A stretch of DNA of 64,000 nucleotides from an uncultured Chloroflexia bacterium (GTDB lineage Bacteria > Chloroflexota > Anaerolineae > CG2-30-64-16): the NCBI GenBank assembly GCA_963774265.1, contig CAVZDU010000009.1, positions 64,001 to 128,000 of the forward strand. The letters are read 5' to 3'. The notes under the pieces were generated by a model that had not been told where the DNA came from, ran no database searches, and saw only the letters and a list, made by a program, of their open reading frames with translations. Positions 3,267 through 50,249 of the stretch are shown here, one piece after another. Numbering within the stretch: position 1 is the first letter of the stretch; each line of letters starts with the position of its first letter. The position numbers and the translations under genes were made by a program.

Positions 3267-4802
3267 ATGCAAAACGAACCATCTCTTCGCCGACGGGCCG
3301 TAAACGCCTGGGTCATGTATGACTGGGCCAACTCCGCATTTGCGACGACCACCATGGCCGCAGTGCTGCCGGTGTTTTTCAGCACCGTGGCGGCCAAGGG
3401 TGCACTCACCCCCGTCCAGGCCAGCAGCACCTGGGGGCTGACCCAGACCATCGGCATGTTGCTCGTGGCGCTGACCGCGCCGGTGCTCGGTGCGATCGCC
3501 GACTACAGCGGGTCCAAGAAGCGCTTCCTGGCTGCGTTCGCCATCCCAGGCATCTTGGCTGCGGCGCTGATGGTGTTCATCAGCACGGGCGACTGGCTGC
3601 TTGCGGTCATCCTCTATGTCGTCGGCGAGATCGGCTTTTCGGGTTCCATCATTTTCTACGATGCCTTATTGCCCCACGTGGCGCGGCCGGACGAGATCGA
3701 CCAGGTGTCGTCGCGCGGCTATGCGATGGGCTATCTTGGTGGCGGCCTGCTCCTGGCGATCAACATCCTGATGATCCAGATGCCCGACGCGCTCGGCATC
3801 ACCGCCCTGGGCGCGCGTTTCGGCGTCGGCGGCGCCGAAATGGGCACCCGGCTGAGCCTGGCCAGCGTGGGGCTGTGGTGGGCCATCTTCTCGATCCCCC
3901 TCTTCCGCCATGTGCCTGAGCCGCAGCGCCGCCGGCTGGCGACCGACAAAATCGAGAACCCGATCAAAGGCGGGTTTGCGCGGCTGTTGGGCACGTTCAA
4001 AGAGCTGCGACTGTACCGGCAGCTCATGATCTTCATCATCGCCTTCTGGATCTACAACGACGGCATTGGCACCATCATCAAGATGGCGACGATCTACGGC
4101 GCGGAGATCGGCATCGGCCAGATCGACCTGATCGGCGCCCTGTTGCTGACGCAATTCGTGGGCATCCCGTTCTCGTTGATCTTCGGGCGGCTGCCGCGAC
4201 GGGATGATCCGCGCCAGGCCTTCTTCCTGGGCTACATCCTGTACAACGCGCTCACCCTCCCCCTGATCGGCTTCCTCGCGCCCCGGTTTGGGATCACAAG
4301 CGGGCCGATGGCCGTCGTCATCGTGTTGGTCAACCAGATCCTCGCGTACCTGCTGAGCCGATTCGTGCTGGCGCCCCTGCTCACGCCGCTGGCCCGCCGC
4401 CTGAATGCCAAGAATGCGATCCTGCTTGCACTCGGCGTCTACACCCTGGTGTCGATCTGGGGCTTCTTCATGGCGACCGCGGTGGAATTCTGGCTGCTGG
4501 CGACGATGGTCGGTCTTGTCCAGGGCGGCAGCCAGGCGCTCAGCCGCTCGCTCTTCGGCAACATGGTGCCCAAGGCGCAGACGGGCGAGTTCTTCGGGTT
4601 CTACGACATGAGCTCGAAGTTCGCGGGCCTGGTCGGGCCGCTGCTCTTCGCGGTGGTCGGCCAGCTCTTCGGGACCAGCCGGCTGAGCATCGTCTCGTTG
4701 ATCATCTTCTTCATCGTGGGAGGGCTGATCCTGACAAAGGTCAACGAAGAAGAAGGTGTGCGCGTCGCCCGCGAGGCGGACGCGCGGGTCATCGCGTCGT
4801 GA
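3267..4802 (+). CDS. MFS transporter, UMF1/ATG22-like family
   Basis: AWVMYDWANSAF, YDALLP, QGGSQALSRSLF, EFFGFY motifs; many TM segments. Confidence 0.88.
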   Translation: MQNEPSLRRRAVNAWVMYDWANSAFATTTMAAVLPVFFSTVAAKGALTPVQASSTWGLTQTIGMLLVALTAPVLGAIADYSGSKKRFLAAFAIPGILAAALMVFISTGDWLLAVILYVVGEIGFSGSIIFYDALLPHVARPDEIDQVSSRGYAMGYLGGGLLLAINILMIQMPDALGITALGARFGVGGAEMGTRLSLASVGLWWAIFSIPLFRHVPEPQRRRLATDKIENPIKGGFARLLGTFKELRLYRQLMIFIIAFWIYNDGIGTIIKMATIYGAEIGIGQIDLIGALLLTQFVGIPFSLIFGRLPRRDDPRQAFFLGYILYNALTLPLIGFLAPRFGITSGPMAVVIVLVNQILAYLLSRFVLAPLLTPLARRLNAKNAILLALGVYTLVSIWGFFMATAVEFWLLATMVGLVQGGSQALSRSLFGNMVPKAQTGEFFGFYDMSSKFAGLVGPLLFAVVGQLFGTSRLSIVSLIIFFIVGGLILTKVNEEEGVRVAREADARVIAS

Positions 4803-5758
4803 GCGAAACCGGGTCGGGCTCGCCCACCACTGCGACCGCCCAGGCCGCGAACAAGGGCGGGCCTCGAGTCAGCACCGATCTGTTGATGCTCCTGACGGTC
4901 CTCATCTGGGGCGTCAATTTTACATCCGTCAAGCTTGCGTTGGGCTACATGGCGCCGCTGGCTTACAACGCCGTGCGCTTTTCCCTTGCGACCCTCGTGA
5001 CAATGGGCGTCCTGGCCTGGCAGGCGCGCGCCACGAGCGATCGCTCTCTCCTCCGCGTGCCGCGGCGAGACATTGTCCCCATCATCCTGCTGGGTCTCGC
5101 CGGCCACACCGTGTACCAGGCGATGTTTGCGAACGGCGTGGCGCGCTCCACGCCGGCCAACGCATCCCTGCTGCTGGCCACTGCGCCCATCTGGGTGGCG
5201 ATCCTGGGGTATCTCCTGGGCATCGAGCGCATCAGCCGCCTGATGCTGGCCGGCATCCTGCTATCATTCAGCGGCATCATGCTGCTCGTCACGAGCGGCG
5301 GCAAAGTCGACCTGGGAAGCAGCTTGCTGCTGGGCAACGTCCTGTTGTTGGCGTGCTCCATGCTTTGGGCCGTGTACACGACGGGCAGTAAACCGCTCCT
5401 GGCCCGTCACTCGCCCCTCAAGCTCACCGCCTGGTCGATGTTGGCCGGCACCATCCCCCTGGTCCTGATCAGCATTCCCGACCTCCGCCGCCAGGACTGG
5501 GGGGAGATTCCGCCGATTGCCTGGGGCGCCTTGCTTTACTCGGCCGTGCTGGCGGTGACCGTGGGTTACACCATCTGGTACGCCAGCGTGCAGCGCGTCG
5601 GCAACGCGCGGACAGCCATCTACAGCAACCTGACCCCCATCGTGGCGATTCTGTTCGCCTGGCTGACGCTCGGCGACGCGCTCGCGCCGCTGCAGTTGCT
5701 GGGCGCCGCGATCGTGCTGGCCGGACTGATCATCACCCGGCGCGGGCGGACGAGATAG
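4799..5758 (+). CDS. DMT/EamA family transporter
   Basis: IWGVNF start, about 10 TM helices, YSNLTPIVA; GTGA overlap with upstream gene. Confidence 0.9.
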   Translation: MSETGSGSPTTATAQAANKGGPRVSTDLLMLLTVLIWGVNFTSVKLALGYMAPLAYNAVRFSLATLVTMGVLAWQARATSDRSLLRVPRRDIVPIILLGLAGHTVYQAMFANGVARSTPANASLLLATAPIWVAILGYLLGIERISRLMLAGILLSFSGIMLLVTSGGKVDLGSSLLLGNVLLLACSMLWAVYTTGSKPLLARHSPLKLTAWSMLAGTIPLVLISIPDLRRQDWGEIPPIAWGALLYSAVLAVTVGYTIWYASVQRVGNARTAIYSNLTPIVAILFAWLTLGDALAPLQLLGAAIVLAGLIITRRGRTR

Positions 5759-39374: not shown

Positions 39375-41747
39375 ATGACCACTGAAGCCGATACCTGCCG
39401 CAAATACGTCCTGCCCAAGCTCGTCAGCGCGGGCTGGGACGAAGAGCCCCACTCCTTCACCGAGCAGCGGACCTTCACCGATGGCCGGATTGTCGTCATC
39501 GGCGAGAAGGTAAGGCGCCGCCCACAGAAGCGGGCCGACTACCTGCTCCGCTACACCCGGGACTTCACCATCGCCGTGGTCGAGGCCAAGCCCGAGTACA
39601 AGACCGCCGGCGAAGGGCTCCAGCAGGCCAAGGACTACGCCGAGATCCTCGGCCTCAAGTTCGCCTACTCCACGAACGGTCACGGCATCGTCGAGTTCGA
39701 CTACTTCACCGGACAGGAGCGCCTGCTCATCGCCTTCCCAACGCCCGACGAGCTGTGGCAGCGCTGGCAGGCCGGCCAGCAGGTGACGCGATGACGTCGG
39801 CAAGTCCCTGCTGACCCCCGCGCACCACCTCAGCGGCAAGACTCCTCGCTACTACCAGGAGATCGCCATCAACCGCACGGTGCAGGCCATTCTGCAGGGC
39901 AAGCGGCGCATCCTGCTGACGATGGCGACCGGCACCGGCAAGACGGTGGTGGCCTTCCAGATCTGCTGGAAGCTGTGGAACGCCCGCTGGAACCGCACCG
40001 GCGAGTACCGGCGCCCCCGCATCCTCTACCTGGCCGACCGCAACATCCTGGTCGATGACCCGAAGGACAAGATATTCGCTGCCTTCGGCGACGCCCGCTG
40101 GAAGATCGAGAACGGCGAAGCCAACAAGAGCCGGGAGATGTACTTCGCCATCTACCAGGCCATCGCTCAGGACGAGCGCCGTCCTGGCCTGTACCGGGAG
40201 TATCCGCCCGACTTCTTTGACCTGATCATCGTGGACGAGTGCCACCGCGGCAGCGCTCGGGATGAGAGCAACTGGCGGGAAATCCTGGAATACTTCCAAC
40301 CGGCGTTCCAACTGGGCATGACCGCCACGCCGCTGCGCGAGGACAACCGGGACACCTACGCCTACTTCGGCAACCCGCTCTACACCTACAGCCTGCGCCA
40401 GGGCATCGAGGACGGCTTCCTGGCTCCCTACCGGGTCCATCGCGTGTTGACGACCTACGACGCCGTGGGCTGGCGGCCAAGCAAGGGCGAGCTGGACCGG
40501 TTCCTGCGGGAAGTGCCGGACCGGGAGTACTCGACCCCGGACTTCGAGCGCATCGTTGCCCTGCGGGCGCGCACCGAGGCCATCGCCCGCCACCTGGCCG
40601 AGTTCATGCGCAAGACCGACCGCTTTGCCAAGACCATCGTCTTCTGCGTGGACCAGGAGCACGCCGACGAGATGCGCCGCGCAGCTCAACAACCTGAACG
40701 CCGACCTGGTGCAGAAGTATCCCGACTACGTGTGCCGGGTGACCGCCGACGAAGGCGAGATTGGCCGGGGCCACCTGTCGCGCTTCCAGGAACTGGAGAC
40801 CAGGACGCCGGTCATCCTGACCACGTCGCAGCTGCTGACGACCGGCGTGGACGTGCCGACCTGCAAGAACATCGTCATCGCCCGCGTGGTCGGCGGCATG
40901 ACCGAGTTCAAGCAAATCATCGGCCGCGGCACCCGTGTCCGCGACGACTACGGCAAGCTCTTCTTCAACATCCTGGACTACACCGGCAGCGCCACGCGGC
41001 TGTTCGCCGACCCCGAGTTCGACGGCTGGCCGGCCATGGCCGACGAAGTGACGATTGATGAGCAGGGCCAGGTGGTCGCAGGGCACCGAGAAGGTGGTGC
41101 AGCCGGAAGAGACCGAGCACGGACGATAGCGAGGGCGGGACGGAGATCGGAGGCGACGACACGGCACAACTGCCGCGCAAGTACTACGTCGATGAGCGGC
41201 CAGGTCGAGGTCGTCGCCCACCTCGTCTACGAGCTGGACCCCGATGGCAAGCAACTGCGCGTCGTCAAGTTCACGGACTACACGGCCGAGAAGGTCCGCA
41301 CCATGTACACATCGGCGGCCGAGCTGCGGCGCCAATGGGCCGACCCGGCGCTGCGAGCGGATATCATCGCCAGGCTGGAAGAGCGAGGCATCAGCTTCGA
41401 TGAGCTGCGCACGGTGACCAACCAGCCCGACGCCGACCCGTTCGACCTGCTGTGCCACGTGGCGTTCAACGCGCCGCTGCGCACCCGCCGGGAACGGGCC
41501 GACCGTCTCCGCAAAGAGGAGCGCGCCTTCTTCGAGCAGTATGGGGCTCGAGGCCCGAGAAGTGCTGGACGAGCTGCTGGAGAAGTACGCCGAGCACGGC
41601 ACTGCTCAGTTCGCCATCCCTGACGTGCTGAAGGTGCCGCCCATCTCCAAGCATGGCAATGTGATTGAGATTGCGAGCCTGTTCGGCGGGGCGGCGCAGC
41701 TGCGCGAGGCGGTCAACCAGCTGCAGTCACTGCTCTATGCCGCCTAA
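39375..41747 (+). CDS. hsdR: Type I restriction enzyme R subunit (EcoAI/EcoEI-like, frameshifted)
   Basis: RADYLL..VVEAK, MATGTGKT, IVDECHRGS, GMTATP, QIIGRGTR, DPFDLLCHVAFNAP. Confidence 0.95.
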
Positions 41748-41759
41748 GGAGACGCAGTG

Positions 41760-43305
41760 ATGGCAATCACGCTGAAGACGGCAGCTGAACGACGACGAGA
41801 AGGCAGCGCATTCTCGAAATCCATGGGCGCAGTGTGCTTCGCCACAGGCCATGCGATTCCCGATGGGCGAACCGGTTCAGTTCGACCACATTCGACGCGT
41901 TTACGCTGATGGCGGCGCTAGCGAACTGGACAATATCGCTCCGATGTGCGAGGACCCATAACAAGGCGAAAGGCACGCTGCCGCTTGGCGGACTTCAGGG
42001 TGAAGCTGCGTCTTGCAGGAGCTTCTTCTACCAGGGCGACAGCGCTGACCCTGAAGGACCTACTGGCATACTTGACAGTCGCAGGGTGACATCGAGTCCT
42101 ACGGGCAGCCTGTGGCGGTCACTGAAGCTACGACGAGCAAGGCTGGATCGATTCGAGACGCTGGCACGGTAACTTCGACTATCCGCTCTACACGTGCCCG
42201 ACGACCGGGTGGAAGTACTTCTACGCGACCCTACCTATCGAGCTCTGGATAGCGACGATGATGCCGACCACGAAGCTGGCCTGCAGCCTCGCTATCTGAT
42301 CTTCGACAAGGTGTTTGAGCTTGTACCGGCACTTTCAGCGACATCCCGTGCTGCAGCCTTCGATTGGCAGAATTCGACAACAATCGGATTCTGCTGTTCG
42401 ACGGCCAGCATAAGATGGCTGCTCTGCTGTGGACTGGACGACGAGTATTCGAATGCAAGATCTATCTCTCGCCGACCTGCGCCTGCTTAATCAGACGAAC
42501 ATCGCGGCCCATGACAAGTTCGCTCAGACGCGATTCTACACTTCGGTCATGGTCATGAAACTGGGAGCCGAGTTCGGCGCGGACTTCGAGAAGTACAAGA
42601 ACCTGGAGGACGGCGCAGCCAAGAGCGAGGCCGGTTTCATGCGTTTCCTGGAGCAGAGACCGCGCAACCAGACGATGAGCGAGCGACATCAAGAGCGCTT
42701 CCGCAGCTACCTGTACAACTCGTGTACTGGAGAGCCGCCGACAACCGATGCCGCTCAGCTATCGTCTCGAACGCGAACCGCAGTACGGACGAGAAGCCGC
42801 TGACCATGGACATGCTTGAGCAAGTCGCTGTTTGCCTGCTTCCTGTACACCGAGCCCGTCGAAGACGACATGGCGACCGACGCGTACAAGCGTGACAAGG
42901 AGATCGCGAACAACATCGCTCTGATGAACATGCTATACGACCTCGCGTCTCGGCGCCTGGAATCCGAAGGCGGGCCCGAATGACGGCACGCAGAGGAAGC
43001 TCAACCGGATGTTCCGGTCGAAGTCGATCATGGCTTGGTCCGAGCTGCTGCAGGGACGCGATCTGCGGCAAGCTGGAACTGCAGGATAGCGAGGACCGGG
43101 CACGACCTTTCTACCGCGACCTTACTGGCGAGGACCTTGGACCGAGTGAAGAAGTCTGTCGAACGGCTAGTGAACTGGAAGCTGTGGGCAGTCTCCACGC
43201 AGACGGCGAGATCGACCGGATCCTGTCGGACAATAAGAGTGCGGTAAGGATTGGTTCAAGGACCACGGCCTGACCACCGGGTATCTTATGGGGGCACCCG
43301 AATGA
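41760..43305 (+). CDS. HNH endonuclease + ParB/DGQHR-like domain protein (about 510 aa, many frameshifts)
   Basis: Manually stitched: AGGAG-ATG, CFATGH..QFDHI..GGASELDNIAPMC..HNKAKG; GLQPRYLIFDKV; RILLFDGQHKMAALL; ends GYLMGAPE* with ATGA overlap into hsdM. Confidence 0.75.
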
Positions 43306-44881
43306 GCAGGCACAAGCGGCAAGACCGCAGCACCCTCACCACCGCCCAGCAGCTCGGCAGCATCATCAAGTCGGCGCGCGACATCATGCGCAAGGACAAG
43401 GGGCTGAACGGCGACCTCGACCGCCTGCCGATGCTCACCTGGATCATGTTCCTCAAGTTCCTGGACGACATGGAGCGGATCGCGCGAGGCAGGAGGCGAT
43501 CCTGGCGGGCGAGCGCTTCCGCCCGGCCATCGAGCCGCCCTACCGCTGGCGCGACTGGGCGGCCAACGAGACGACGGCATCACCGGCGACGACCTGATCG
43601 CCTTCATCAACAACGACGAGGCCATGCGGCCCGACGGCACGCGCGGCCCGGGCCTGTTCGCCTACCTGCGCGGCCTGCAGGGCGCCAACGGCGGCGACCG
43701 GCGCGACGTGATCGCCACCGTCTTCCGGGCGTCGTCAACCGCATGATCAACGGCTACCTGCTGCGCGACGTCATCAACAAGGTCAACGGCATCCACTTCA
43801 CCGTCATCGGACGAGATCCACACCCTGGGCGCGCTGTACGAGTCGATGCTCAAGGAGATGCGCGACGCGGCCGGCGACTCCGGCGAGTTCTACACGCCCG
43901 CGCGCCGGTGGTCCGCTTCATGGTCGAGGTGATCGACCCGCGGCTGGGCGAGACCGTGCTCGACCCGGCCTGCGGCACCGGCGGCTTCCTGGTCGAGGCG
44001 TACAAGCACCTGGAGACGCAGTGCCAGACGGTCGAGGACCGCGAGACGCTGCAGGCAGCAGAGCATCTTCGGCGGCGAGGCCAAGCCGCTGCCCTACCTG
44101 CTGGCGCAGATGAACCTGCTGCTGCACGGGCTGGAGTACCCGCAGGATCGACCCGGACAACAGCCTGCGCTTCCCGCTGCGCGAGATCGGCGACCGGGAC
44201 CGGGTGGACGTCATCCTGACCAACCCACCCTTCGGCGGCGAGGAGGAGCGCGGCATCCTCGGCAACTTCCCCGACGACAAGCAGACCGCCGAGACGGCGC
44301 TGCTGTTCCTGCAGCTCATCATGCGCAAGCTGCGCCGCCAGCCCGAAGCCGGGCCGGGCCGCCGTGGTCGTGCCCAACGGCACGCTCTTCGGCGACGGCG
44401 TGTGCGGCGCGCATCAAGGAGGAGCTGCTGAAGGAGTTCAACCTGCACACCATCGTGCGGCTGCCCAACGGCGTCTTCGCGCCCTACACCAGCATCCCGA
44501 CCAACCTGCTGTTCTTCGACCGCTCCGGCCCGACGCAGGACGATCTGGTACTACGAGCAGCCGCTGCCCGAGGGCCGCAAGAAGTACACCAAGACGCAGC
44601 CGCTGCAGTACGAGGAGTTCGCCGACTGCCTGGCGTGGTGGAAGGACCGGCAGGAGAACGAGCGGGCGTGGAAGGTGAAGGCCGCCGACGTGCTGCAAGC
44701 TACGACGCGGCCGGCAACCTGGTCTCGGTCAACCTGGACATCAAGAACCCCAACGCCGCAGCAGGACCTGGAGCACCTGCCGCCGGAGCAGTTGGTCGAG
44801 GACATCCTGCGAGAAGGAGCAGCGGATTGCGGAGATAATGATGGAAATCAAGCAAGCGCTGACGGAGACGGCTCACGGTGA
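43302..44881 (+). CDS. hsdM: Type I restriction-modification methyltransferase (frameshifted)
   Basis: IKSARDIMRKDKGLNGD, GEFYTP, VLDPACGTGGFL, ILTNPPFGG, VVPNGTLF. Confidence 0.95.
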
Positions 44882-46070
44882 ACAGACGCGTTTGGCCCGC
44901 GTCACGCTGGGCTCGTTGCTAGCGCCAGTCGAGCGACCAGGAGTACATCGATTCCAGGTCAGAGCTCTATCGGCAGCTGGGCGTTAGGTTGTGGGGTGAA
45001 GGCGCGTACGAACGCGGAATCACTGGACAGGATAGTCAGAGCTGCGACTACACTTCAGTTGTCGCGGTGCAGAGGATGACCTTGTCGTAAACAAGATCTG
45101 GGCTCGCAACGGCAGCGTTGCCATTGTTCCGGCCGAAGTCTAGACGGTGCGTTACGTCTCAGGTGAGTTCCCCACATTCGACATCGACCAATCCGAGCTT
45201 CTGCCTCGCTGGTTCCACTTGGCTGACCAAGACACAGTGGCTTTTGGCAGCAGTGTGACCAGGACTATCACGAGGTACCAGCGGCAAGAATCGCATCCGA
45301 CCCGAGCCATTTCCTCGCAGTCACCATACCCTTGCCACCACTCGACGAGCAGCGCCGCATCGTGGCACGCATCGAGGAACTGGCGGCCAAGATTGAGGAG
45401 GCGCGGGGGCTGCGGCGCGAGGCTACGTTGGAGACCGCCTCGCTCATTCCAAGCCTGCTACATATATTCTTCGAATGTGACACTAGCCTTTGGACCACCA
45501 TATCGATGGCAGATGCAGTCAGCATCAACGACCGTCAAGTTGACCCGACCGTCATGCCCTATTCAGCCCTTCCCCATATAAGCGGCGAAAACATGGAGAG
45601 CCAAACGTGTAGGTTGCTGTCCTACAGGACGGCGGAGGAGGACGGCATCAAGAGCGGGAACTATCTCTTCTCATCTGGCACTATCCTCTATTCGAAGATT
45701 CGTCCTTATCTCCGAAAAGCCGTATACGTGGACTTTGACGGCGTCTGCAGCGCCGACGTGTACCCCATAAAGATAGTCAACGACAGTCTCGACCCTAGGT
45801 TTGTGATGTGGGCTTTAGTGGCAGGTCCGTTCACAGAATATGCCAACCGACTATCGGGACGCACCAGAATGCCCAAGCTGAATCGAAGGCAGTTGTTCGA
45901 CTTCCGTTGAGGTATCCGCCGCTTGAAGAACAGCATCGAATAGTCACGCTTTGGAGAAGCTGCGGAGCAGTGTGCAGTCAGTCAAACAGACGCAGGCCGA
46001 AATCTCTGCCGAACTCGACGCCCTGCTGCCGTCCATCCTGGACAGGGCATTCAAGGAAGAGTTGGTCTGA
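44878..46070 (+). CDS. hsdS: Type I restriction-modification specificity subunit (frameshifted)
   Basis: PPLDEQRRIVARIEELAAKIEEA, ILYSKIRPYL, YPPLEEQHRIV, LLPSILDRAFKEELV*. Confidence 0.92.
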
Positions 46071-46128: not shown

Positions 46129-46809
46129 ATGGCCTCTGATTGGCCGCTAGTAATTGTCACCCTCTTGGTGGCAGTCACCGCCCTCCTAGTTCCTCTCGTC
46201 GCGGAATGGCTGAAACGAAGGGTCTATGCTCCAAGGCTGCAGGTGACGTACCGGCACGCTCCTCCTTGTAGCATACGTACCGGATGGCGCTCCCCCGTCA
46301 ATCCTGCGCTCCGCGAACCCGTCCACTACTTCAGGTAGTAGGTTGTCAACACAAGTGAATCGCGAGCAGAGCATTGCGAGGCCGTCCTCGAGGAGTTGTT
46401 CGTATATGATGCATCCGGGACGGCACGTAAGTTACCGGATTTCTCGTCACAGAACTTGCGCTGGGCAGGAACCGGGGAGACACTTGTGCAAATCAACCCC
46501 CGTCGGACAATGTATTGCGACATCGGCCATATCTCGTCTCCCACATATCAAGCCAGGGAGGAGCATGCCGTTTTCCTAGACGTTCCTGGTCGCGGCGATA
46601 ATGCGCTGCGTATGCTGTTGGACGAGGTGTCGTACCCGTATTCTCAACCCAATTGTCTCGCGCCGGGCAAGTATCGTCTAAAGATTGTAGTCTACTCCCA
46701 AAATGCACCCACCGTTGTCGCATGGTTGGAAGTTGATTGGACGGGAAGATGGCAGGACGCGCAGTCCGATATGCTGCGAGAACTGGTCATCACGGCCAAG
46801 AAGGGGTAA
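46129..46809 (+). pseudogene. Membrane-anchored hypothetical protein interrupted by two consecutive in-frame TAG codons
   Basis: N-terminal TM; VHYFR-TAG-TAG(46336-46341)-VVNTSESRAEHCEAVLEEL continues in the same frame to 46809. Confidence 0.7.
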
Positions 46810-46825
46810 GGGTTTCACGAAATCC

Positions 46826-48324
46826 ATGGACGAAGTGGAGTTGATGGTGCTTATCGCCGAAGGCGAGAGCGAACGGCTCGATTTCAAGCGAGAGCTTCGG
46901 CTCGACACGGGGCGAATGAAGGCTGAGTTCATCAAAGACGTCATATCTCTTGCCAATTCGGCCTCGGGCGTCGGCTACCTTTTAATCGGTGTCGATGATG
47001 AAAAACTAATTGTAGGAGCCGCGGAGGTCTCGGAGGAGCAAATTCAGAGTGTCTGCGACAGTTACATTACTCCACCGATTGCAGTCAAATACTATGCAGT
47101 GCCTTTTTCCACTCCCATCGTGCCCCCAGTTGGGGTCTTGGAGGTTAGGGCTCGTCGGCGTCCTCACCGGGTCGCTCGACCAATAGAGAACCTGAGCAAA
47201 GAAAACGTCTATGTGAGACACGGGTCCGTGGTAGCACGGGCTGGACCTGACGAAATAATCAAGTTGGATGAAGGCTGGCTGCGAGAGGCAGCAAAGAACC
47301 AACGACGGCTGACTGTGGCTGGAGGGAAGCTAACGCGGGGTAACTGGACGGAAGCCATAAAGGGATTCTCCAGAGTCATCGACGCGGAACCAAGTGGAGA
47401 GGTTTATCTGGAGCGCTGTGAAGGCGTTTACTGAGGCTTACAAAATCACGCAGCCGCAGGAAAACGCCACTGACGCTGGAAGACTTCTCCGTAGTGCCTA
47501 TGAGGACTACTGCCATGCAGTGGACCTGGCCGATTCCGTGGAGTTGGAGAGGAAAGCGCGGAAGGGGCGCCTACGCTTTGACTTTGGCCGCGGTCCCGAA
47601 GGGGAATGGGACACCGATTTGGCGTGGCTCAAATCGCGCTCGGAGGGACGCGAATACGGGGAAGTCCTCGTCTGCGAGCAGCAAGTCTATTACAATCGTT
47701 CAGGCGAGGTCGGTCACGACGCGGTCCCTCTGCTTACACAGGCAATTGAGCTGGGATGTGACAGCGCTCAGGCATATTTCCTCCGTGCAATAGGACATCG
47801 AGCTGGCTTCAACTACGGTCTTGCTCTGAATGATTTGGATGAAGCAGTTCGTCGCTTGAAGCAGGGCGACGCGAAGACTTTCGCTGAGTATCTCACATAT
47901 CAAGCTGAGGTGCTGGCTTCGATGGAGAGATTTGGAGAGGCGTACAGGGCATTGGAGCAAGCGAGCAAAGCTGACTCAAGAACCATGCGAGTGACAACTT
48001 GGCTCACGTGGAACCAATCCATGGTGCTTTGTCTTGAAGTATGCCCTGCAAGCCGGTTTCCCTGGCTGCGAGCCATATGAGACTGCTCAAATCGCTGCAG
48101 CGAAGGTACTGGCGCTGAGTTTGGACCCCTCGGCGGTCCGCGAAACATACGCCGATTGCCCGGAGCTGAGAGCACTTGTGGAGAGACTGCTGGGCGAAGA
48201 CTTTGCTGAACTCGTGCGGAATGATCTCAACCAGTACACTGTCGAGATACAGGCGGAGAGTATTATTGACCGTGCCGACATCTATCGAATCTGGCCTCGA
48301 ACATCCCGAGCGCCAGGTGATTGA
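46826..48324 (+). CDS. Schlafen/AlbA_2 domain + TPR-like repeat protein (frameshifted)
   Basis: GESERLDFKREL, KDVISLANS..GYLLIGVDD, YVRHGS; then AYFLRA..ALNDLDEAV and FGEAYRALEQA helical repeats. Confidence 0.8.
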
Positions 48325-48358
48325 GTGATGGGCGAGAGCTTTCGAGGTGTGCTTCCAC

Positions 48359-48476
48359 TGGGTCCGGACCATCAACCAGCACGGCGGAGTTCGGTCGCTG
48401 GCGTTCGGATGTGTCCAAGCAGCCGGGGGACATACTGGACATTCTTGCGCAGCACGTCACATATGGACAGGAGTGA
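48359..48476 (+). pseudogene. C-terminal relic of a type III restriction Res-like protein
   Basis: WVRTINQHGG[+1]FGRWRSDVSKQPGDILDILAQH..* resembles the WVxAVNxHGGFGRW terminus of this family (from memory). Confidence 0.55.
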
Positions 48477-48573
48477 TGGAGATGCAGCACCTCGGCATCG
48501 CATACGCGGGCAGCGTTTCTATCGATGCGAACCGTTTTGCCACAACAAGTGACCGCCGTATAGCGAGCAAACT

Positions 48574-50249
48574 ATGGATGCCATAATTGCCGGTCTACAT
48601 CATTGGCTTCGCTCTCTTCACAGTGGTCTTCACTGTGTTGATAGTTCGTAGGGCGAGGGAGCAAGAGGCGCGGGGCGGCGGACGAGCAGGTGAGGGTATT
48701 ACGCGAGGCGGAGGGGCAGCGGAAAGAACAGGAGAGGAGATCGCGAGGCGGAGGGGCGGCGGAAAGAACAGTACGAGAGGATGAGGGAAGGGCTGGAAAG
48801 GCACAGGAAGCAGGAGAGGGAGCAGAAGGAGATGCGGGAGAAGCAGGAGAGGGAGCAGAAGGAGATGTGGGAGAGGCAACTGCGGGAGGCGGAGGAGAAA
48901 CGCAAAGAGTACCAAACTCGCTGGAACGCAGTGCAGGCAAACGTGCGAAGCGCCACCCAGCTGAGGGAGTTCGTGCCCCGGATTCTTACTGACGCCGCTC
49001 TATTTCCTCGCTCAACCTCTGGTTCCCTGGACCCAGAGAGCACGCTTTTTCGACCCGAGTAGGCATCGTTGACCTGCAAGGCCACTTCAAGCAGGTCCTT
49101 CTCAGCGGTCGCTACCCCTCCGCGTTTCCCATCTCCCATGACCTATTCCTCGATTCCGGCACTGGAATCCTGGTCGTCGACTACACCCTGCCTGCGCCGA
49201 GTGACCTTCCGACGCTCAAGGAGGTTCTTGAGAAGCGCAGCACTGGTGAAACAGTGGAGAAGCACATAAGCACCACCGAACACAGTCGGCTCTACGATAC
49301 TCTCGTTTACAGTATAGCGTTGCGCACCATCCATGAGCTGTTTGCAGCGGATGTCCAAAAGGTAGTGACCGCGGTGGTATTCAACGGGTATGTACAGACG
49401 GTGAACCCCGCCACGGGCCAACCCGCGCGTCCGTGCATCATTTCCGTGCACGCCGGCAAGGACCAGTTCCAAGCCATCAATCTCGCCAACGTCGAGCCGA
49501 AAGCTTGCTTCCGACTTCTCAAGGGGGTTGGAAGCTCAAAGCTGCACACGATAACCCCCATAGTGCCCATCTTCAGCGTTTCGATGGAGGATAAGCGATT
49601 CGTCACGTCTCGGCCCATCGTCGAGGCAGTGCAAGGGGACCAGAATCTTGCCAGCATGGATTGGGAGGACTTCGAGCACCTTGTCCGCGAGGTTCTTGAA
49701 ACGGAGTTTGCTGGAAACGGGGGCGAGGTGAAGGTGACCCGTGCCAGTCGCGACGGTGGGATTGACGCCATAGCATTTGACCCGGACCCGATTCGCGGCG
49801 GCAAGATTGCCATCCAAGCCAAGCGGTATACAAATACGGTTGGTGTGGCAGCGGTGCGCGACCTGTATGGCACCGTCATCAATGAGGGGGCCATGAAAGG
49901 AATCCTGGTCACCACTGCAGACTATGGCCCCGACGCCTATGAATTTGCGAAAGGCAAGCCCATTACGTTACTCAACGGGGGCCACTTGCTGTATTTGCTG
50001 GAGAAGCACGGTCACCGGGCCCGCATCGACCTGGAGGAGGCCAAACGTACCCTTGCTGAGTCCCAAACTGCGACAGGGTCGTCAACTGCTCGACCGCGCA
50101 GTCGTGAGACTCGACAATGCTGTGACGGTAATCATGCGACAGCAGCGGCAGAGCTCGAGTGCGGAGTCTTTTCGTCAGCGAGAGGACCTTCGAAGCCGGG
50201 GAAGCTCACATCCGCAGCTAGCCCGAACATGAACGGGCAAGTATCGTAG
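48574..50249 (+). CDS. Mrr-family restriction endonuclease with N-terminal TM helix and coiled coil (frameshifted)
   Basis: IIGFALFTVVFTVLIV; EREQKEM repeats; MDWEDFEHLV, DGGIDAIA, IAIQAKRY, VRDLYGTV, GILVTT. Confidence 0.87.

Follow-up and report, generated by a model that had tools for sequence, protein, structure and literature searches.

Between hsdR and hsdM of a type I restriction-modification (R-M) operon, the window analysed here, a 64,000-nucleotide (nt) stretch of the genome of an uncultured Chloroflexia bacterium, carries an embedded gene, gene X, whose product of about 505 amino acids (aa) joins a predicted HNH nuclease to a domain with a predicted DndB-like ParB fold. The gene spans 41760..43305 on the + strand and is concealed by 20 single-base frame changes. 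An earlier note on this DNA, made from the letters alone, had reported no long open reading frame (ORF) between hsdR and hsdM and had stitched one protein of about 510 residues across the gap. The longest + strand ORF between 41750 and 43305 is indeed of 124 aa, and coding pieces of X are spread over all three + frames between the hsdR stop and 43305; the single stitched protein stands, its length being corrected to about 505 aa. Frameshift-aware alignment, a check that the earlier note had proposed, was made with a dynamic programme tolerating frame changes. It recovers one protein: the 505-residue relative P0004 aligns in full to 41757-43305 with 397 of 505 residues identical, 20 frame changes (15 single extra bases and five two-base skips) and 0 in-frame stops over 505 codons. 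Positions 41760-43305 are one gene. Its borders are as first described. The TAA stop of hsdR (41745-41747) is directly followed by an AGGAG ribosome-binding site, read from the sequence (41748..41752, + strand), and the ATG of X lies at 41760, 12 nt beyond that stop, with an in-frame GTG at 41757 as alternative start. The TGA stop of X (43303-43305) overlaps the ATG of hsdM (43302-43304) to give an ATGA. X is present in a single copy in the source genome. Since a 91-aa fragment alone (42453-42725) finds 302 proteins within E<=0.01, with P0004 as the top match and a lowest E of 5e-32, X is real far beyond chance; the matches listed for this fragment are mostly 501-505 aa long, with 61-78% identity. 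The HNH-type and LQPR/LLFDGQHK motifs picked out before are all present (CFATGH, FDHI, GGASELDNIAPMC, HNKAKG, LQPRY and LLFDGQHK, with FDGQHK at 42397-42414), and each falls in a column of the family alignment that is invariant or nearly so.

The window lies on contig 9 of a source bin of 5.5 Mb in 10 contigs that is 84% complete. Across 36-50 kb its ORFs are short, overlapping and on both strands, and almost all are fragmented. Frameshift-aware comparison places 20 breaks in the 1546 nt of X (12.9 per kb, reference P0004), 13 in the 1578 nt of hsdM (8.2 per kb, reference HsdM of locus L041) and five in the 2367 nt of hsdR (2.1 per kb, reference HsdR of locus L044), with 0 in-frame stops in each of the three. 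The breaks in X are probably assembly errors, and the gene is probably intact in the organism, because the X sequence has no stops and the same kind of breaks is found in hsdR and hsdM. In a search for reads of the stretch, four public wetland runs held 5-6% of sampled words; contigs from these runs covered conserved hsdR and hsdM parts from related organisms and left X essentially uncovered. The relatives' contigs are one base shorter at 40683, 43567, 43809, 43899/43903, 44403-44406 and 44542, six sites that fall at or within about 10 bases of breaks placed in hsdR and hsdM. A DNA-level search of 40 relatives' genomes found no copy. Along the contig the frame-breaking indels, mostly single extra bases, are unevenly dense, increasing from hsdR to hsdM to X; local coverage, strain mixture or uneven polishing are possible reasons.

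X could instead be a genuine pseudogene that is decaying between two functional genes, hsdR and hsdM. Its break density, the highest of the three genes, points that way, truncated or broken copies are found elsewhere (L044, L066, L072, L073, L077), and L016 is a decayed hsdR'-X-'hsdM remnant. Decay giving 20 indels should, however, have left many substitutions and stops too. Twenty indels without a stop over 505 codons, at 79% identity to P0004, which is above the typical within-family identity, are not like neutral decay. The 13 breaks of the adjoining hsdM, the fragmentation of nearly every ORF over 36-50 kb, and the 84% completeness in 10 contigs, which fit an unpolished long-read assembly, also speak against a pseudogene, and we consider it improbable.

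The HNH (His-Me finger) nuclease domain covers residues ~1-88 (41760..42030, + strand), with its D-H pair at 41884-41889. The Pfam HNH model matches a fragment of the window gene at E 1.2e-3 and 19.4 bits, near the gathering cut-off of 21.4 bits; among six core family members two score above this cut-off (22.4 for P0004, and 22.3) and four below. A match at E<=0.01 is found in 42 of 49 members of the wider superfamily, the best at 1.3e-11. The Pfam matches of the nuclease domain of the family are to PF01844/PF14279/PF13395, and NCBIfam models matched the HNH part of IscB and Cas9d in the core members (n=6). Over 46 family sequences C26, H43, N57, N66 and K69 are invariant and D42, H31, C62 and H65 are conserved in at least 90%; all are present in the window. 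Residues 1-81 of an AlphaFold2 model of P0004 (mean predicted local distance difference test score, pLDDT, 84.4) superpose in VIA-align on EcoKMcrA with Z 6.7 and a root mean square deviation (rmsd) of 4.1 over 77 aligned residues, on Cap5 (Z 6.0), on the HNH domain of GeoCas9 (Z 5.9) and on Gme HNH (Z 5.2), values of moderate size that recur across more than 20 HNH entries. The N-terminus is, as the earlier note had proposed, a predicted HNH nuclease in which the catalytic and zinc-binding positions are all conserved.

A beta-rich segment and a ParB/Srx-fold, DndB-like domain follow (residues ~89-240; 42030..42480, + strand), carrying LQPRY and then FDGQHK. In VIA-align comparisons of the predicted model, residues 147-240 match sulfiredoxin (Srx) 6ky4 with Z 9.1, 87 of 89 residues and rmsd 3.5; PadC 6ryk (Z 8.8), KorB 8qa8 (Z 8.0) and the pNOB8 ParB 5k5d (Z 7.2) come next. 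Foldseek returns Noc, ParB and Srx matches with probability 0.9-1.0 and weak E-values (2e-3 to 1e-2). The middle domain is thus modelled as a ParB/sulfiredoxin fold, the fold that the motifs had first suggested. Q170, P171, R172 and the stretch F207-K212 are invariant in the 46 family sequences. The replacement of R by K in the motif, also pointed out at the outset, is a constant trait: K212 is invariant in 46 of 46 sequences and the lysine is nearly invariant in the 49-member superfamily, so that in these alignments the lysine of FDGQHK is a family signature.

The ParB branch to which this domain belongs was addressed by profile-profile comparison with 16 DUF262/GmrSD_N and nine DndB domains taken from genomes of the same class or phylum. 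Two query alignments served, A1, the narrow family alignment, and A6, a diverse alignment of the 49 superfamily members (19-34% identity). Against DUF262, hhalign gives 2.9% for A1 and 8.7% for A6, insignificant matches limited to 17-22 columns around the DGQ motif. Against DndB it gives 10.8% for A1 and 88% for A6, the latter at E 3.1e-6 over 120 columns, with QPR over the QR of DndB and FDGQHK over DGQHR in register. The middle domain is, by these profiles, nearer to DndB than to GmrS. The kinship with both DGQHR and DGQQR proteins claimed in the earlier note therefore holds on the DndB/DGQHR side and fails on the GmrS/DUF262 side. The Pfam DndB model (PF14072) has no match in the six core or 49 superfamily members and neither group is matched by PF03235 (GmrSD_N/DUF262); TIGR03187, a DGQHR domain model, gives a weak, sub-threshold match (E 0.085) in one of the six core members. 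The DGQQR, DGQHR, QR and FxxxN motifs are defined in Machnicka et al. 2015 (PMC4619093). The X family departs from the DGQHR-family set, having DGQHK with an invariant K and Q-P-R in place of QR, and no FxxxN motif was recognised in it, the corresponding stretch reading LLNQTN.

DndB is described as an ATP-dependent repressor of dnd (PMC12704722 and PMC3632139), and the former text reports binding of ATP and GTP by a DndB-like protein and, for ParB-fold proteins with a DndB-like one among them, of ATP, GTP or CTP. DndB and X share the ParB/Srx fold and a QR-type motif followed by DGQH(R/K), whereas X has K for R, an N-terminal HNH fusion and no dnd genes seen nearby. The closest profile match of the middle domain being such a repressor, X might be a regulator or DNA-modification cofactor, that is, a DndB-like nucleotide-sensing DNA binder that controls or assists neighbouring modification genes, and methyltransferases are frequent among the neighbours of the family. 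The catalytic HNH residues are nevertheless invariant in 46 of 46 sequences, with C25 and N56 invariant across the superfamily, no dnd or ssp genes were seen among the annotated neighbours, and these neighbours are too diverse for one regulatory target. We give this reading very little credence.

The remainder of the protein is a conserved helical C-terminal domain (residues ~241-505; 42480..43302, + strand) with many invariant residues. The pLDDT of the P0004 model is mostly 80-97 in this part, residues 243-254 falling below 50. Whole-model searches with Foldseek and VIA-align gave no clear match for the helical domain, only low repeat-like ones with Z<=4.5, and a sequence-profile search of the PDB with the family returned weak HNH matches only. 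Conservation extends over the whole length: the 46 family members, of about 504 aa, have 58-70% identity to the first sequence and more than 100 invariant columns distributed over all three domains. In the diverse alignment C25, N56, D159, H210, E283, R369, E372 and W466 are invariant, and H42 (at least 90%), P170, R171, R197, F206, D207, G208, Q209 and K211 nearly so. Searched exhaustively with A1 in HMMER, 1.84 billion cluster representatives yield 828 at E<=1e-3, 331 at 1e-10 and 100 at 1e-30; the 828 include fragments, and many are full-length proteins of about 500 aa. The clusters of the family in the protein atlas are named only "HNH endonuclease family protein", and a literature search found no paper on its function, though it may figure in supplementary lists belonging to Payne et al. 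or PMC12704722.

The genes that enclose X could be delimited by the same means. The restriction subunit gene hsdR, of EcoEI_R_C type, lies at 39375..41747 (+ strand; tblastn of HsdR from L024/L028/L041/L044). In frameshift-aware alignment 561 of 780 residues are identical to L044 HsdR, with breaks at 39789, 40684, 41078, 41194 and 41549, and a fragment of the gene matches HSDR_N. The N6-adenine methyltransferase subunit gene hsdM covers 43302..44873 (+ strand; frameshift-aware alignment to L041 HsdM, 391 of 512 residues identical), and the N-terminus of the window HsdM agrees with the HsdM consensus. The specificity subunit gene hsdS follows at approximately 45078..46064 (+ strand; tblastn of L024/L041 HsdS), with a Methylase_S match on the fragment 45227-45907. 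Further downstream on the + strand are an AlbA_2/Schlafen-domain gene (46691-48077; Pfam SLFN_AlbA_2, E 2e-15) and an Mrr_cat restriction endonuclease gene (48993-50246; Pfam Mrr_cat, E 5.6e-31). The G+C fraction (GC) is 0.54-0.59 at 46691-50246 versus 0.65-0.69 in the flanks; within the operon it is 0.66 in hsdR, 0.58 in X and 0.68 in hsdM. From this composition and gene content the region of 39.4-50.3 kb looks like an acquired defence island. Outside the window, the source genome also encodes a canonical GmrSD_N (DUF262) protein on contig 2 (882594-883310, locus L118; E 2.4e-29), the match lying in an open frame of 617 aa. The source organism would hence hold candidates for both the classical and the reversed-order ParB-fold nuclease.

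Relatives of X are widespread. A scan of one genome for each of 185,579 species gave 333 confirmed stretches, of which 80 loci make up the context survey. Genes were called as the longest non-overlapping ORFs, up to three genes of at least 100 aa were taken on each side, and all 334 neighbours were annotated with Pfam. As no centre gene was recognised in L037, neighbour counts are over 79 loci. The hosts of the 80 loci include Acidobacteriota, Chloroflexota, Planctomycetota, Verrucomicrobiota, Bacteroidota, Spirochaetota, Pseudomonadota, a Thermoplasmata archaeon and others. The 334 neighbours fall into 292 clusters, which makes the context highly variable; most copies are solitary, in surroundings of unrelated kinds. 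R-M genes are a small fraction of a genome. An R-M component is nonetheless found within three genes of X in 22 of 79 loci (L005, L007, L008, L012, L013, L014, L016, L020, L022, L024, L028, L033, L041, L044, L052, L057, L064, L066, L075, L076, L079 and L080), the kinds represented being types I, II, IIG, III-like and Mrr. About 12 further loci have toxin-antitoxin, abortive infection or other defence-type domains (ThsB_TIR, HepT, RES, PIN, Zeta, AbiJ, Fic, large helicases). The earlier note had held that homologues unconnected with R-M or defence loci would count against its proposal. A connection with R-M is found at these 22 loci, but the particular order hsdR-X-hsdM is seen in only six of the 80 besides the window (L012, L024, L028, L041, L044 and L016). 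Within this set a kinase gene precedes hsdM in L028, X is truncated and the downstream part lost in L044, and the decayed remnant L016 was assigned by similarity of its flank DNA. X begins 0-16 nt past the hsdR stop in the other hsdR-X-hsdM loci.

Elsewhere X accompanies genes of another kind. It lies between the large subunit and the FAD subunit of a molybdopterin dehydrogenase in L002 and L004 (coxL|coxM-like) and just after such a large/FAD subunit pair in L060 and L061; just before nuoL, with a 4-nt overlap, in L018 and L031; between ffh and trmD/rplS in L019; after rpoB-rpoC in L039; upstream of ilvBN in L048 and of prfA-prmC in L063; and after thrS in L067 and L071. Copies inside or at the ends of housekeeping operons, as in L018/L031, L002/L004, L019 and L039, are unusual for a defence gene.

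The tie of X to the type I system was followed on a tree of 73 X proteins, for which the window copy was read through with an undetermined residue (X) at each break and the hsd-embedded group was set by context beforehand. The six hsd-embedded copies need five changes on this tree, and an approximately unbiased (AU) test rejects a single clade for them (log-likelihood difference 239, p 4e-158). Pairwise identities among the hsd-embedded loci are 55-71% for HsdR (the short L016 remnant left out), 59-67% for X and 68-75% for HsdM. By HsdR the window is nearest to L044 (71%), by X it is nearest to L024, and the X of L044 is nearest to L012, L016 and L028. Since the nearest partners differ by gene, the histories of X and HsdR disagree. 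A search with L044 HsdR of 401 genomes of the window's phylum found 19 with a match at E<=1e-100, and at nine loci hsdM lies within 1.5 kb downstream of hsdR. There hsdM is directly adjacent in five (L091, L092, L097, L098, L109), while the junction holds a 352-aa DUF932 protein in one (L090:3880-4935), unannotated ORFs in two (L093:695-1381, 229 aa; L089:3999-4415, 139 aa) and X in the window itself. In L091 a 484-aa HNH protein, 36% identical to the family, is encoded directly upstream of hsdR-hsdM (3928-5379, - strand) and, judged by this identity, belongs to a divergent branch, the second one found next to R-M systems of this kind. The hsdR and hsdM ends are very conserved, with 72-80% DNA identity over ~100-160 nt across phyla, and recombination might proceed through them. 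We read the hsdR|hsdM junction as a slot with variable cargo, where X has arrived, or been exchanged, on several occasions.

These data bear on the role first proposed for X. It would guard or assist the type I complex, being restrained by HsdR/HsdM/HsdS or acting through them, and would fire upon inhibition like PrrC in the EcoprrI locus. PrrC is a precedent; a 2025 review (PMC12707154) presents PrrC and RloC as sensors of type I inhibition. The compact embedding, with a ribosome-binding site directly after the hsdR stop and an ATGA overlap with hsdM, speaks for such a role; six further loci, spread over five phyla, have this arrangement and an almost identical upstream junction, the embedding has arisen or been renewed on several occasions, and a 36%-identical relative stands just upstream of a related hsdR in L091. 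Yet hsdR-X-hsdM accounts for only 6 of 80 loci and the window and is absent from 73, there is no R-M component within three genes in 57 of 79 loci, and the protein is equally conserved in non-hsd contexts. The slot takes unrelated genes or none, the histories of X and HsdR disagree, and Pfam and NCBIfam detect no ABC-ATPase or anticodon-nuclease domain as in PrrC. PrrC and RloC and the rlo genes of C. jejuni resemble X as co-oriented genes nested between hsd genes, but PrrC is reported almost only inside type I loci in Payne et al. 2024 (bioRxiv 10.1101/2024.01.29.577857), whereas X is mostly elsewhere. With few hsd-embedded loci, not of one lineage, in a variable slot, the guard role appears doubtful at best: the earlier note was right about a compact hidden gene between hsdR and hsdM, and our analysis does not support the accessory role. 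A more elaborate possibility, to which we attach as small a chance, is that the junction is a dedicated docking slot re-entered by HNH-ParB-like nucleases through gene conversion over the very conserved 3' end of hsdR and 5' end of hsdM, possibly started by their own HNH cut, the nuclease being then tied to the type I enzyme, for instance by cutting DNA marked by a stalled or inhibited translocating complex. If that were true, X would be both a self-propagating cassette and an R-M-coupled effector with a nucleotide switch, a new kind.

Other features of the loci reveal how the gene travels. When 250 nt on each side were compared, flank DNA was common only to loci that share neighbour genes or are close kin, and conserved ends like those of an insertion sequence were rejected on this ground. 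A GAATGA 3' end acting as a portable start codon was also rejected, as the stop contexts vary (TAA, TAG, TGA). The GC of X averages 8 points below its surroundings and correlates with host GC (r 0.91; 72 loci); the deficit exceeds 3 points in 58 of these 72 loci, and in none of them is the GC of X the higher one. In a well-supported Bacteroidota-centred clade the X ORF is preceded at ~40-50 nt by a GTT(A/G)-type site and followed by a long imperfect hairpin with AAC...GTT bounds; the hairpin is found in four of six folded sequences (L057, L062, L065 and L050, with z -2.6, -1.1, -3.2 and -2.3, respectively). Tyrosine recombinases with a SAM_4 N-domain are encoded 2-3 genes upstream of X in L043 and L062. 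From these sites, hairpins and recombinases the copies of this clade look like integron gene cassettes. The window X leaves no room for an attC, its stop overlapping hsdM. Only three relatives were found among 2.9 million viral contigs. The X family is shown by these observations to be a single-gene, horizontally mobile unit.

Mobility of this sort would also suit a selfish homing-type or cassette-borne nuclease gene, a promoterless ORF that persists by inserting itself into operons and integron arrays and profits its host little or not at all. Copies stand between genes of housekeeping operons, some with 4-nt overlaps (L018/L031, L002/L004, the rpsP-trmD region of L019, L039), flanks are shared only where neighbours are shared or kinship is close, one clade has attC-like ends, X never exceeds its host in GC, closely related copies from one phylum occupy different contexts, and the hsdR|hsdM junction was reached repeatedly. 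Homing genes decay, however, and would seldom show such strong conservation over all 505 aa (58-70% across phyla); the insertions have no target in common, and relatives in viral contigs number only the three just mentioned. Cassette status is moreover not against defence, as integron cassettes often carry defence genes according to bioRxiv 10.1101/2024.07.02.601686. A purely selfish gene seems to us unlikely, if somewhat easier to imagine than the guard of a type I enzyme.

Enzymes of related build are known from defence systems. In Makarova et al. 2013 (PMC3632139), ParB-like domains of the COG1479/DUF262/DGQHR group are reported as fusions with HNH and other nucleases and as linked to R-M, and the hsd (type I) loci of C. 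jejuni are reported to hold a COG1479/DUF262 gene (PMC3632139, PMC11411939). Vizzarro et al. 2024 (PMC11411939) report that TgvAB, a GmrSD-like pair, is embedded in the type I operon of V. cholerae VPI-2 and that it restricts phages with modified cytosines independently of HsdR. Payne et al. 2024 (bioRxiv 10.1101/2024.01.29.577857) extend such cases to a general principle, "guilt by embedding"; they find GmrSD-like genes frequently inside Hma and type I systems and report that 96.7% of embedded genes are co-oriented. A 2025 survey of the ParB-CTPase fold (PMC12704722) counts HNH among fused domains; in the passages available HNH fusion is mentioned without function, context or NTP-binding result. 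GmrSD, BrxU, SspE, HEC-06 and TgvAB combine a DUF262 ParB-like NTPase with a DUF1524 nuclease, are type IV or phosphorothioate-sensing, and often reside in BREX, Hma or type I loci. X has in common with them a ParB/Srx-fold domain with DGQ(Q/H)(R/K) connected, in one polypeptide or a pair, to a His-Me finger nuclease via a helical region, the presence in defence islands, and the co-oriented embedding inside R-M-type operons. It differs in its reversed order, nuclease first, in a nuclease that matches PF01844, no DUF1524 match being listed, and in the motif DGQHK, not DGQQR; X is in addition known from sequence alone.

We favour, with moderate confidence, the hypothesis that X is an autonomous, nucleotide-gated, restriction-like anti-phage nuclease, analogous to the embedded GmrSD-like enzymes. 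X would act alone, its ParB-like domain binding a nucleotide triphosphate and/or DNA and thereby gating cutting by the HNH domain, in analogy to GmrSD, BrxU, SspE and TgvAB albeit with the domains reversed and drawn from different branches of each superfamily. Placed without a promoter among the hsd genes, X would be expressed along with the type I system and would add a second, complementary defence layer while taking no physical part in the Hsd complex. Its target might be modified bases, a structure or a nucleotide signal. As the alternative to its guard, the earlier note had put forward a nuclease that serves independently as a back-up of the R-M system, and this alternative fits the data and the precedent, by analogy, of TgvAB, BrxU and HEC-06. 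The position in the type I operon of the window is one of several recurrent landing sites of the gene and stands for co-expression, not for a demonstrated partnership.

Several points weigh against this hypothesis. The defence role of the family is drawn from neighbourhood and analogy; the R-M link concerns 22 of 79 loci, with enrichment judged against general knowledge, and the PADLOC models, a search also suggested at the start, contain nothing credible for the X family. Many copies are in housekeeping operons with no defence gene in view, which fits a selfish element equally. Nucleotide binding by X is only predicted, from a motif that ends in K, not R. The DndB profile link is moderate (88%) and appears only with the diverse A6, the narrow A1 remaining at 10.8%, and DndB itself is described as a regulator, not as a partner of a nuclease, in the passages of PMC12704722 and PMC3632139 cited above. 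The density of breaks in X, in excess of that in hsdR and hsdM, may reflect real decay in the source organism. The repeated arrival at the junction and the relative in L091 could, finally, mean a closer functional tie to the type I family.

The X family is an uncharacterised, strongly conserved combination of HNH and DndB-like ParB fold that behaves as an autonomous, mobile, defence-island gene, one gene moving in three ways, as cargo of R-M loci, as an insert in operons and, it appears, as a cassette of integron type. Its recovery here has a bearing on annotation, since indel noise in long-read metagenome bins hides real genes that frameshift-aware comparison recovers. If the proposed function holds, the family would provide a widespread and compact candidate for a single-protein restriction-like enzyme of ~505 aa, whose build differs from that of the studied GmrSD, BrxU and SspE by a canonical HNH placed first, a ParB fold of the DndB branch and a lysine in the phosphate motif. 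It would then be another case of defence genes embedded in defence operons, and a tractable system for how a ParB-type nucleotide switch gates a nuclease.

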